This document shows, one piece after another, positions 59,096 through 62,504 of a DNA stretch of 64,000 bases. The translations under genes and the position numbers were made by a program. The stretch lies in NCBI RefSeq assembly GCF_003790525.1, contig NZ_CP033635.1; one strand, given 5' to 3'. The stretch comes from Escherichia coli. Lineage in GTDB: Bacteria; Pseudomonadota; Gammaproteobacteria; Enterobacterales; Enterobacteriaceae. The number at the start of each line of letters is the position of its first letter. The first letter of the stretch is position 1. The notes under the pieces were generated by a model. It ran no database searches. It saw nothing but the letters and a program-made list of their open reading frames with translations, and had not been told where the DNA came from.

Positions 59096-60265
59096 TCAGG
59101 CGGTTTCTCTTGCTGTCACTACGCCATTTTGCGCAGCCCACAGATTCACATCTTCCTTACGAATGGCGGCGGCCATCATGCCGGGGAATAAATCTGGGGT
59201 ACAGGCAAAGGAGGGAATACCCATGGCGGCGAGTTTTCCTGCCAGTGACCGGTCGTAAAACGGCGCACCTTCATCGCTTAAGGCCAGCAGGGTAACCACC
59301 TGTACGCCGGACTGAATCAACTCACTGGCGCGTTGCAACAGATTGCGTTCCACCCCGCCTTCGTAGAGGTCGGAAATCAGCACCAGAATGGTATTGCGCG
59401 GATCGCGAATCAAAGACTGGCAGTAGCCCACCGCGCGGTTGATGTCGGTGCCGCCACCCAGCTGTACGCCAAACAGCAGCTCTACCGGATCGTCGAGCTT
59501 CTCTGTCATATCAACGACTGCGGTGTCGAAAACCACCAGATGCGTTTTTACCGCCGGGAGCGATGCCATTACTGCGCCAAAAATACTGGAATAGACCACC
59601 GAGGAGGCCATCGACCCACTCTGGTCGATACATAAAATGATCTCCTTTTGCGTGCGTTGAGACTTGCGCCCGTAGCCGATCAGCGTTTCAGGAACAATAC
59701 TTTTATACTCTTCCTGCCAGTGGCGCAGGTTGGCGCGAATGGTGCGCTGCCAGTCAATTTCCGCGTGGCGCGGGCGACGATTACGTACCGCACGATTAAG
59801 AGCGCCGCTTACCGCGCTACGCATTGGCTCTTCAAGCTGTTTCATCAATTGCTCGACAACTTTACGCACCACAAGCCTGGCGGTTTCTTTGGTTTTGGCC
59901 GGAATTACGCCATTCAGCGACATCAGCGTGGAGACCAGATGAACATCAGGCTGGACGTTTGCCAGCATCTCCGGCTCCAGCAACATACTGTGCAAATTAA
60001 GACGTTCAAAGGCGTCTTTTTGCATCACCTGAACCACAGAAGAAGGGAAATACTGGCGAATATCACCCAGCCAGCGAGCGACTTTGGGTGACGATCCACC
60101 CGTGCCGCCGCGTAATCCATGTTTACCCTCTGGCTGATACAGCGCCGCCAGCGCGGCATCAATCGCGGACTCTCTGGCATCCAGCGCCACGTTACAGGCA
60201 TTGTCGGCATCTTCTCCAAGGATCAGACGCCAGCGGCGCAGCCGTTCCATTTCGTTACTCGACAT
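59096..60265 (-). CDS. von Willebrand factor A (vWA) domain protein, 389 aa
   Basis: MIDAS motif DQSGSM (DxSxS) in ...ILCIDQSGSMASS...; AAAGGGA Shine-Dalgarno; start overlaps upstream gene stop by 11 nt. Confidence 0.8.
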   Translation of the reverse strand: MSSNEMERLRRWRLILGEDADNACNVALDARESAIDAALAALYQPEGKHGLRGGTGGSSPKVARWLGDIRQYFPSSVVQVMQKDAFERLNLHSMLLEPEMLANVQPDVHLVSTLMSLNGVIPAKTKETARLVVRKVVEQLMKQLEEPMRSAVSGALNRAVRNRRPRHAEIDWQRTIRANLRHWQEEYKSIVPETLIGYGRKSQRTQKEIILCIDQSGSMASSVVYSSIFGAVMASLPAVKTHLVVFDTAVVDMTEKLDDPVELLFGVQLGGGTDINRAVGYCQSLIRDPRNTILVLISDLYEGGVERNLLQRASELIQSGVQVVTLLALSDEGAPFYDRSLAGKLAAMGIPSFACTPDLFPGMMAAAIRKEDVNLWAAQNGVVTARETA

Positions 60266-62504
60266 GATTTTCCCTTTCGTGTGGTGGCAAAGCCAGAATG
60301 CGGCGCAGTAGCGGCAGCATTAACGCGGCACGCTGTTCATCCCATATACCGCTGGTCTCTTCTTGCTGCGCGACACGCTCGCCCTGCGCGGCGCGTTCGC
60401 CTAACTGGCGGCGTTCCGGGCTGGAAAAACGGCCGAATGTCCGCCGCAGCATCGGCAGGATCCGGGTGAAGTGATTGTCGTTCAGGCCGCTTAGCCAGGC
60501 ATCGATCAACTGCCATAATTCGCTATTGTGCAGTAGCACCATCGCGCTGTCGTTGAGGAAACCTTCCGCCCATGCGGCACTTTCCGCCGGGGGATTGGCT
60601 GGCGATAGCGCCAGGTTCATCAGCGTGCTGATCCGTTCTGTCGTTAACGTTTGCAGATCAAACAACAGGCGCGTCGCCGTTCCGCGAAGCAGCGCGTGTG
60701 CGGTACTGCCCTCTGCCAGCACCATCAACGCCTGCAACCAGCCCGCCAATAGATCTTCGTTATCCAGCAACCGCAGCGCGGCGTGGGCGTCGATAACTTT
60801 TTCTCTCATACTGGCGGCGCTGTCGTCGTTGAGCGCCGAACAGGCTCCGGGTAGGGCGATGGCGGCGCGCGGGGCGAGGCTCATCAGTACCTGCATTACC
60901 ATACCAGAGTCGGTCTGGCGCACGTTGCCGTAGCGGACAATCGCCACCAGTGGTGCCAGGGCTTCCAGCAACTGTTCGATATTGCCCTGAGTGGCAGCCA
61001 GTGATTCCAGTGTATTGGCGATGGGGGCAATCGCGGTCTGTAAATCGGCCAGTAGCACCTGTTGGATAAGCTTTGCCAGTTCCGGCAGCGTGCTGGCGTA
61101 TTGCGCCCTCACAATGGCATAGCGGGAGCTGGCCTGCTCAATGCTGTTACCCCAACGGCTGGCGGTAATGATGTTGATTGCCAGTGCCGGTTCCCAGCGC
61201 AGCGACCAGACTTCGTGGAACGTCCCTTTGCTGTTATTTCCTTGTCCAGCCAGACGGCCCCAGGAAATGTCGAGTAAGGTCAGGCGATGCAGTAAATGGC
61301 TACGCGCCAGATCGCCGGGTTTGCGCAGATCAAGATCCAGCACTTTTTCGCTGGCTTCTGCCTTCAGGCGCAGCGTTTTTTGCTGTTGCGTAATGTCGCG
61401 TTGGAGCGGCACGACGGGCGTATCATCCGGTACGCTTCCCAGCGCGTCGCCGACAATTAACTTCTGGCGAATCATCTGCATTGGCGCGCTTTCGCCCATA
61501 CACACTACGGTTTGCAGCGCTTCGCAAAGTTCGTCAAGCCCCGGCTGCGGGTGATGGCGCATAATCGCCAGCGTCTGCGCCAGCCGCGCCGCTTCGATAA
61601 TGTGGGCGCTGGAACAGTCGAGATCGGCTTCGCGAAACAGCCTTGCCGCGCGTGACAGCCAGCCGATATCGCGGTGAGAAGCGCCCTGATAACGCCACAG
61701 ATGATCGTACCATTCCGGTGACACCACCCCTGCGCCATAACCGCTGGCGCGGCTTAACGCCTCGTAGCTCCAGGGCGTCCAGGCTGCCGCGACCTTGCAC
61801 TTCGGCAAATTTTTCAGCAGTTCGTTATCATTCTTTGCGGGCGGCAGGTTTTCCAGCGCCGGAACGTGCCACGCACCGCAGACTACCGCGATGCGCGAGA
61901 AGCCCTCTTTTTTCGCCTGACGTAGCGTCTTGCGCATATACGCTTCACGCAGTTGATCTCTGGCTGAGTTTCGGGCTTCGGGAGTTGCCTGGCGTAGGGC
62001 AATCATCGCCTCGCGAATCGCCTCGAACAGAGACAAATCATCTTCGCGTTCCTCTACTCTGTGGCTCCACCAGCTTTCCCCATCGGTGTAACCGGCGGCG
62101 CGGCCCAGCCAGTCCAGCGGATCGCCGTCGGGACTGGCTTCAACGGCATCATCGTCATCGCTCTCTTTTTCGTCATCAAGCGCGAACTGATGACTGATGG
62201 GCAAGTCCATAAAGCGCACGGCGATATTTTGCTCAAAACCATAGCGCAGCGCCTGCCATTCCGGGGAGAACGCCGCAAAGGGGTAAAACGCGGCGTGATG
62301 TGAGTCGTCCGGGGCATAAATCAGTAGCGCGACCGGCGGTTGCATCTGTTCATGCTGCATAAAAGGCAGGATGGATTCGCCGTCGGGCGGCCCTTCCACC
62401 AGCAGGCAGTCGGGCTGTAGCGTCTCCAGCGCCTTTCGCAGGCTGCGCGCGCAGCCAGGGCCATGGTGACGGATGCCAAACAAATGAACGGTTTGTTCAG
62501 TCAT
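60255..62504 (-). CDS. large protein of unknown function, 749 aa, operon partner of MoxR-like ATPase and vWA protein
   Basis: ATG with AAGG Shine-Dalgarno 17 nt after the AAA gene stop; acidic low-complexity stretch DDEKESDDDDAVEASPDGD; no nucleotide-binding motif seen. Confidence 0.75.
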   Translation of the reverse strand: MTEQTVHLFGIRHHGPGCARSLRKALETLQPDCLLVEGPPDGESILPFMQHEQMQPPVALLIYAPDDSHHAAFYPFAAFSPEWQALRYGFEQNIAVRFMDLPISHQFALDDEKESDDDDAVEASPDGDPLDWLGRAAGYTDGESWWSHRVEEREDDLSLFEAIREAMIALRQATPEARNSARDQLREAYMRKTLRQAKKEGFSRIAVVCGAWHVPALENLPPAKNDNELLKNLPKCKVAAAWTPWSYEALSRASGYGAGVVSPEWYDHLWRYQGASHRDIGWLSRAARLFREADLDCSSAHIIEAARLAQTLAIMRHHPQPGLDELCEALQTVVCMGESAPMQMIRQKLIVGDALGSVPDDTPVVPLQRDITQQQKTLRLKAEASEKVLDLDLRKPGDLARSHLLHRLTLLDISWGRLAGQGNNSKGTFHEVWSLRWEPALAINIITASRWGNSIEQASSRYAIVRAQYASTLPELAKLIQQVLLADLQTAIAPIANTLESLAATQGNIEQLLEALAPLVAIVRYGNVRQTDSGMVMQVLMSLAPRAAIALPGACSALNDDSAASMREKVIDAHAALRLLDNEDLLAGWLQALMVLAEGSTAHALLRGTATRLLFDLQTLTTERISTLMNLALSPANPPAESAAWAEGFLNDSAMVLLHNSELWQLIDAWLSGLNDNHFTRILPMLRRTFGRFSSPERRQLGERAAQGERVAQQEETSGIWDEQRAALMLPLLRRILALPPHERENHVE

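Follow-up and report, generated by a model that had tools for sequence, protein, structure and literature searches.

What does a protein contribute when its gene lies between those of a MoxR-type AAA+ ATPase and a von Willebrand factor A (vWA) protein? The question is raised by a stretch of 64,000 nucleotides from Escherichia coli (assembly GCF_003790525.1, contig NZ_CP033635.1; hereafter the window), in which such a gene, encoding 749 amino acids and belonging to the DUF5682 family, lies on the minus strand. To our knowledge, MoxR-vWA pairs are understood only where the client enzyme is known, namely Rubisco, NO reductase and CO dehydrogenase, and we know of no function assigned to the YehL subfamily of MoxR ATPases since its definition, in almost every E. 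coli or in the thousands of other bacteria that carry it. The results below suggested that the DUF5682 protein could be the hydrolase-plus-scaffold subunit of a five-protein YehL-type MoxR-vWA remodelling machine, an assignment that we hold about as readily as we doubt it.

The 749-residue protein belongs to the DUF5682/YehM family

The gene under study is located as follows.

60255-62504, minus strand: DUF5682-family gene, 749 aa, distant YehM paralogue (intact open reading frame; PF18934; profile match to YehM)

Its product is identical to RefSeq WP_000139765.1 of E. coli SMS-3-5, named 'DUF5682 family protein', and matched the Pfam model PF18934 (DUF5682) with an E value of 2.4e-268, residues 22-737 lying on model positions 1-727. 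The lead to a relative came from a plasmid search, which showed a 26%-identical E. coli copy adjacent to btsSR and flanked by genes for a MoxR ATPase and a SWIM protein; this copy belongs to the K-12 cluster yehL-yehM-yehP-yehQ. BLASTP aligned the protein with YehM at 27% identity over 564 aa (E 3e-41), and hhalign of the DUF5682 profile against YehM gave Prob 100% and E 5.6e-51 over 674 columns. The GIRHH, LIEGP and CGGWH motifs are retained in YehM, and the RefSeq name of yehM is also 'DUF5682 family protein'. These comparisons identify the protein, on sequence grounds, as a full-length distant paralogue of K-12 YehM.

The DUF5682/YehM family is catalogued but functionally uncharacterised. 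An exhaustive phmmer search collected 4,447 representatives at 50% identity (E <= 1e-3), and a word-indexed search gave at least 8,000 clusters at 90% identity. PHROGs returned matches to phrog_30700 and phrog_31592; NCBIfam, PADLOC and phmmer against PDB sequences returned none. Our literature search found no paper mentioning DUF5682 or DUF5691, and no paper in it gives a function for yehM, whose passing mentions are limited to H-NS/StpA repression, a copper-evolution mutation list and a transcriptome list. YehL gives its name to one of seven MoxR subfamilies (PMC3893208), and H-NS/StpA represses yehL and yehM, whose expression rises in hns/stpA mutants (PMC3686432). The names given to family members in UniProt contradict one another: 'Tiki superfamily ChaN domain' protein, '4-aminobutyrate aminotransferase' and 'BREX-2 system phosphatase PglZ'.

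A preliminary description of this DNA, made from the sequence alone, had reported neither a Walker motif nor a transmembrane helix. The scans agreed: Walker A and HExxH motifs were looked for and not found in the protein, and every 19-residue window on the Kyte-Doolittle scale stayed at or below 1.35. The acidic low-complexity stretch that it had noticed was placed at residues 109-127 (DDEKESDDDDAVEASPDGD), and its Leu/Ala-rich, helical-looking C-terminal half was borne out by composition (Leu+Ala 31% over residues 441-749) and by the AlphaFold2 model, which is all-helical from about residue 440. It had also set up placement in a well-characterised family with a mundane role as the check on its interest; the profile placed the protein in the uncharacterised DUF5682/YehM family instead.

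Invariant residues and predicted structure of the DUF5682 protein

Conservation was read from 97 aligned homologues of diverse sequence (36-77% identical to the query), and the N-terminal motif from the N-termini of 150 representatives at 50% identity. Nearly all full-length sequences among the 150 carried G-[IV]-R-H-H-G-x-G, and 34 columns were invariant in the 97-sequence alignment. The motif is not a chance pattern, because it is near-universal in the former set and invariant in the latter. The invariant residues of the N-domain comprise R12, H13, H14, G15, G17, E37, E82, D100, E151, R171, R186, E187, M190, R191, G210, A211 and H213; G255, Y256, G259, D392, R394, E431 and W433 lie near or in the middle region.

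The AlphaFold2 model, with the 97-sequence alignment as input, reached a predicted local distance difference test score (pLDDT) of 92.5 and a predicted template modelling score of 0.87. Together with the alignment, it divides the protein as follows.

61740-62504, minus strand: N-terminal alpha/beta domain, aa 1-255, with a predicted TIKI/TraB/ChaN/Ere-like fold
62454-62480, minus strand: F-G-I-R-H-H-G-P-G motif, aa 9-17, first GxxH, at the C-terminal end of strand 1 (R12, H13, H14, G15 and G17 invariant)
62394-62396, minus strand: codon of invariant E37, in the PD..LVE motif at the end of strand 2, putative counterpart of the TIKI catalytic Glu (hhalign alignment with YbaP ADALIVE)
62121-62198, minus strand: acidic disordered loop, aa 103-128, an N-domain insert after strand 95-98 (pLDDT below 70)
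61866-61877, minus strand: second GxxH, G210-A-W-H213, at the end of strand 204-210 (G210, A211 and H213 invariant; aligned with YbaP VGALH)
61185-61739, minus strand: middle helical region with a small beta insertion, aa 256-440 (from the alignment and the model)
60258-61184, minus strand: C-terminal alpha-solenoid, aa 441-749, HEAT/importin-like

The strands of the modelled N-domain span residues 5-11, 33-36, 58-76, 95-98, 204-210 and 239-244. The only disordered part of the model, around residues 117-128, falls within the acidic loop, which is 15-83 residues long across the family and has a net charge of -3 or lower in 72 of the 97 homologues. A Foldseek search of AFDB50 returned matches filled by DUF5682 family members themselves. 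Because the Pfam model PF18934 begins at residue 22, it does not cover residues 1-21 (window positions 62441-62504), which include the invariant GIRHHGPG, the most conserved motif of the family.

The N-domain resembles the TIKI/TraB superfamily in predicted fold and motifs

The N-domain is predicted to be an alpha/beta domain with the parallel beta-sheet core common to TraB, ChaN, Ere, RRSP, PMT and HopBA1. Its first GxxH (G10-I-R-H13) comes right after strand 1, a Glu (E37) after strand 2, and the second GxxH (G210-A-W-H213) near the domain end. The E. coli TraB-family protein YbaP has three motifs in the same order, G-S-I-H, A-D-A-L-I-V-E and V-G-A-L-H. Two independent local hhalign matches landed exactly on the ADALIVE and VGALH motifs of YbaP, and a relaxed hhalign run joined all three motifs plus the SPEWQ/QPLWQ helix, with G-S-I-H aligned to GIRH. 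In RRSP and Bcr135 a 2His/2Glu constellation lies near three strands of the parallel sheet, and in Ere enzymes a His-Glu pair activates water (PMC6254334). Judged by its sequence, the GIRHHGPG motif corresponds to the first GxxH of TIKI/TraB enzymes and is recognisable as a signature of catalytic type, which makes the preliminary statement that no catalytic motif could be recognised too strong. 'Haem-binding uptake Tiki superfamily ChaN domain-containing protein' is the UniProt automatic name of two DUF5682-family fragments, which indicates that some signature already touches the family.

Several results weigh against this assignment and against an enzymatic role. None of the hhalign alignments of DUF5682 with YbaP, taken as a single sequence or as a shallow alignment (effective number of sequences, Neff, about 2), was significant (E 0.19); the YbaP homologue search had given close relatives only. 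A Pfam scan of 39 DUF5682 N-domains showed no match to TraB (PF01963) or ChaN (PF04187), and the search of PDB sequences with the N-domain profile was empty, TraB and ChaN included. The first Glu of the 'ExH' of RRSP and Ere is Ile in DUF5682, and the invariant R12 and H14 are without an equivalent in TIKI proteins. Nor are all members of the superfamily enzymes: ChaN is a haem binder, and the PMT C1/C2 domain is without the catalytic motif. Substrate, phenotype or biochemical data for any DUF5682 member were not found in the literature searched.

Homology between DUF5682 and TIKI proteins is therefore supported by the predicted fold and the motif pattern, not by sequence statistics, since no alignment or profile match was significant. 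Of the loose resemblance to TraB/PrgY/GumN proteins first proposed, the fold and motif part stood, and significant sequence or profile similarity did not emerge. DUF5682 differs from TIKI proteins in its acidic insert and its helical extension of ~500 residues, and in being cytoplasmic and coupled to an AAA+/vWA pair; no paper found in the literature searched links MoxR with TraB or Tiki.

DUF5682 is part of a conserved five-gene operon

The operon beyond the window edge was read from the E. coli SMS-3-5 record (locus L001; NC_010498.1), to which the window is a 100% match. On the minus strand, the gene order is SWIM (440 aa), DUF5691 (534 aa), AAA_5 ATPase (364 aa), DUF5682 and CoxE-type vWA (389 aa), with overlaps of 4 nt, 4 nt and 11 nt and one 17-nt gap at the junctions. 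The partner genes are the following.

59096-60265, minus strand: vWA protein (CoxE type), YehP homologue with an intact metal ion-dependent adhesion site (MIDAS), overlapping the DUF5682 gene by 11 nt (PF05762, E 3.6e-52)
62522-63616, minus strand: AAA_5 ATPase (MoxR, YehL-type), 364 aa (PF07728, E 1.8e-38)
63613-64000, minus strand: 3' end of the DUF5691 gene, cut by the window edge (whole gene at L001 17614-19218)
L001 19215-20537, outside the window: SWIM zinc-finger gene, upstream of the DUF5691 gene

The MIDAS residues of the vWA protein, D214-x-S-x-S, T273 and D299, are 96-100% conserved. The Walker A, E-E Walker B, sensor 1 and Arg fingers of the ATPase are conserved as well, and so is the C-x-C...C-x-H of the SWIM protein. 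By these motifs, the partner proteins look functional. Among solved structures, midasin and NorQ come closest to the ATPase, whose Pfam match to bpMoxR was marginal (E 3e-4 over 49 residues). Its Walker B reads V-E-E at residues 159-161, where D-E is the usual form; across 63 sequences the E-E pair does not vary. A comparison of two E. coli alleles gave a ratio of nonsynonymous to synonymous polymorphism of 0-0.28, indicating purifying selection.

To survey the locus, one genome per species was scanned, which gave 566 loci; 80 were retained. About 55-65 of these 80 have all five genes in an unchanged order, and they are spread over more than eight phyla (Proteobacteria, Bacteroidota, Cyanobacteria, Chloroflexota, Planctomycetota, Verrucomicrobiota, Deinococcota, Armatimonadota and others). 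Clustering of all flanking open reading frames in the 80 loci showed no sixth conserved gene and no client gene. The preliminary description had framed the locus as a ternary MoxR-vWA system: the ATPase and vWA partners do adjoin the gene, and the conserved genes number five, not three. Identity to the E. coli proteins across the loci was 67-82% for the ATPase, 53-79% for the vWA protein, 42-59% for DUF5682, 27-48% for the SWIM protein and 23-38% for DUF5691, the fastest-evolving component. A promoter and terminator scan of the locus was uninformative. Solo DUF5682 genes, with the N-terminal motif intact and no partner gene within 8 kb, were seen at L016 (Acaryochloris marina), L045, L061 and L076; there, the protein may rely on partners encoded elsewhere or work on its own.

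Comparison with the yeh cluster showed that the relation extends to the core partners, the ATPase being 41% identical to YehL (E 2e-77) and the vWA protein 38% identical to YehP (E 4e-79). The local order ATPase-DUF5682-vWA is shared, and both systems have a SWIM protein. However, the operon studied here has the 440-aa SWIM and DUF5691 genes 5' of the ATPase gene, whereas K-12 has the 614-aa, two-SWIM YehQ after the vWA gene. The SWIM protein aligned with YehQ over the SWIM region only (E 0.08), and no yeh counterpart of DUF5691 was detectable. Neither DUF5691 nor the SWIM protein showed a detectable relation to YehQ (beyond the SWIM finger), YehI (DUF4132), YehF, YehK or the C-terminal part of DUF5682. 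The two systems also differ in distribution: yehM is near-core (5332 of 5426 complete E. coli genomes), while the gene studied here is rare (33 of 5426). Upstream of yehLMPQ in K-12 (L084, 2196000-2218000) lie yehF (PF05406-family), the pseudogene yehH and the gene of the 1210-aa DUF4132 protein YehI, a region that could supply functional counterparts of the missing partners.

Comparison with other AAA+/vWA systems

As in CbbQ/CbbO, NorQ/NorD, CoxD/CoxE(/CoxF), RavA/ViaA and midasin, an AAA_5 ATPase is accompanied here by an adjacent MIDAS-bearing vWA protein, of the CoxE type. Unlike the known AAA_5/vWA pairs, the system has no client enzyme gene nearby and has two extra conserved partners. 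Its ATPase is 27% identical to CoxD, and no cox genes lie near the locus. An analogy with CoxF, on the grounds of an RHG-like motif, was rejected: CoxF on pHCG3 belongs to the XdhC family and has no similarity to DUF5682. The VMAP/iSTAND ternary conflict systems likewise combine a MoxR-vWA core with dedicated extra partners, and their vWA protein has a CoxE-like N-terminal region. However, no VMAP or iSTAND component and no variable vWA effector domain is present here; Pfam shows only DUF5682, DUF5691 and SWIM, and the architecture does not vary over the 80 loci. In the account of vWA-MoxR ternary systems by Kaur et al. 2020 (PMC7159879), SWIM and TraB/Tiki are both unmentioned. The system is thus neither a VMAP/iSTAND ternary conflict system nor a Cox system.

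Proposed mechanism

If the DUF5682 protein is a hydrolase-plus-scaffold subunit, its machine would consist of the SWIM zinc-finger protein, the DUF5691 helical protein, the YehL-type MoxR AAA+ ATPase, DUF5682 itself and the CoxE-type vWA/MIDAS protein. The first ~255 residues would form a TIKI/TraB-type alpha/beta hydrolase domain, with H13, E37 and H213 at C-terminal strand ends, aided by R12, H14, E82, D100, R186, E187 and R191; we infer the clustering of these candidate active-site residues from the secondary structure of the model only. By analogy with TIKI, Ere and RRSP, they may activate water, possibly via a bound metal, and cleave a peptide or ester bond. The remaining ~500 residues, a predicted helical solenoid, would most likely hold partners or substrate. 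In CbbQ/CbbO, NorQ/NorD and midasin an acidic residue of the client is the docking point for the vWA MIDAS, and the AAA+ ring pulls on the client; by analogy, such action here would gate or load the hydrolase, with the conserved acidic loop of the TIKI domain as a candidate MIDAS docking site. The analysis itself shows family membership, a predicted fold, invariant residues, a conserved operon, intact motifs in the partners and purifying selection; catalysis, gating by the AAA+/MIDAS pair, the part played by the loop, the substrate and the cellular role are inferences.

A bolder version, which we consider rather improbable, holds that DUF5682/YehM proteins are ATP-gated TIKI-type proteases, which a midasin-like ring and a MIDAS adaptor switch on or feed with a substrate picked by the SWIM and HEAT-like subunits. 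If true, they would represent a very widespread class of bacterial machine for regulated intracellular proteolysis or signalling, unrecognised until now, and would give the near-core yehLMPQ cluster and the YehL subfamily of MoxR ATPases their first function. Should the third partner be a TIKI/TraB hydrolase with a His-Glu-His site, it would be the first TIKI-fold domain coupled to an AAA+ motor. What the analysis offers is nothing categorically new; it turns a long-known E. coli cluster of unknown function into a directly testable hypothesis. The practical point is that existing annotation overlooks the likely active site: the Pfam model starts past the motif, and the UniProt names are contradictory.

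Other explanations

The TIKI-like domain might instead be non-catalytic, a ChaN-like ligand or metal binder, in which case DUF5682 would serve a MoxR-vWA metallochaperone as its client or as a carrier of the cofactor; its His, Glu and Asp would hold a metal or tetrapyrrole, and the AAA+/vWA pair would help insertion or release, with CoxD/E, NorQ/D and the BchI/D-BchH and CobS/T-CobN chelatases as parallels. This explanation is weakened by the lack of a linked gene for a cofactor or client enzyme: among the conserved neighbours in the 80 loci, none encodes a metalloenzyme or belongs to a cofactor pathway. CoxF, the third Cox component, is unrelated to DUF5682, and the residues kept in DUF5682 match TIKI catalytic positions. 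We regard a carrier role as unlikely. A pure scaffold or adaptor, in which the conserved N-terminal residues are structural or protein-binding and the output lies in another subunit, would suit a protein of which two thirds is helical solenoid, and inactive TIKI domains such as PMT exist. Yet an invariant polar set of His, Glu and Arg at strand ends, kept in 97 sequences and YehM, is typical of active sites, and the other four proteins have no recognisable enzyme domain except the ATPase, which makes a purely structural role very unlikely. Equally doubtful is a phosphohydrolase, for which the R12-H13 dyad after strand 1, the further invariant R171, R186 and R191, and H213 would act in the manner of the RHG...R...H core of histidine phosphatases.

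The operon could also serve anti-phage or anti-plasmid defence, with DUF5682 as a protease effector and the fast-evolving SWIM and DUF5691 proteins as sensors. TIKI-fold toxins such as RRSP and HopBA1 are known, and SWIM and DUF5691 do evolve fastest of the five. We keep the idea at low probability because of the patchy, transferred-looking distribution (33 of 5426 E. coli genomes, raised G+C, plasmid copies) and the H-NS/StpA repression of the paralogous yehL and yehM. Against it, PADLOC-DB 2.0 had no match to DUF5682, vWA, SWIM or DUF5691, its sole signal being weak P-loop-region matches of the ATPase to IetA models (E 0.0014-0.003); IMG/VR viral contigs contained no relative, and 50 open reading frames flanking 16 loci showed no consistent defence context. 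The architecture is invariant, with no effector swapping and an ATPase 67-82% identical across phyla, unlike typical conflict systems, and yehM is near-core in E. coli. A phage link through PHROGs was rejected: the only INPHARED record, MT835988.1 (L085, 'UNVERIFIED: Bacteriophage sp.'), is a faecal scaffold that looks bacterial. Besides ATPase-DUF5682-vWA, for which it is the sole record in the phage collection, it codes for a RarA-like AAA ATPase and a PgdA-type deacetylase; PHROG families 30700 and 31592 may derive from sequences like it.

Genomic island and strain distribution

In the 33 E. coli genomes that carry it, the DUF5682 gene always lies between nanQ and gltD; copies are also found on plasmids. 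G+C content is 56-59% in 2-kb windows across 60001-64000, versus 44-56% elsewhere in the window. The distribution thus looks patchy and horizontally transferred. The island spans about 58100-64000 of the window and beyond, between nanQ (yhcH) and gltD, where K-12 presumably carries gltF-yhcADEFG. A DUF1016 pseudogene fragment at one island edge (window 58968-59090; L001 12969-13091) is probably a remnant of yhcG. A 190-aa hypothetical protein (58187-58759, plus strand), encoded beside a 48-aa open reading frame, has no NCBIfam, PADLOC or PHROGs match; it accompanies the island in other E. coli strains and is absent from the homologous loci of other species.

Two strain differences were observed within the operon. 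Between SMS-3-5 and CFIAFB20140388 (L086 9359-10963), the synonymous divergence of the DUF5691 gene was 0.16, against 0.03-0.05 for its four operon neighbours, a pattern suggesting that part of this gene, the fastest-evolving of the five, is recombined or mosaic. In E. coli EC17CM2 (CP190349.1, L088 6889-7983), the ATPase has an in-frame internal deletion of ~99 codons, and this system is probably inactive, because Walker B, sensor 1 and the Arg fingers are lost.

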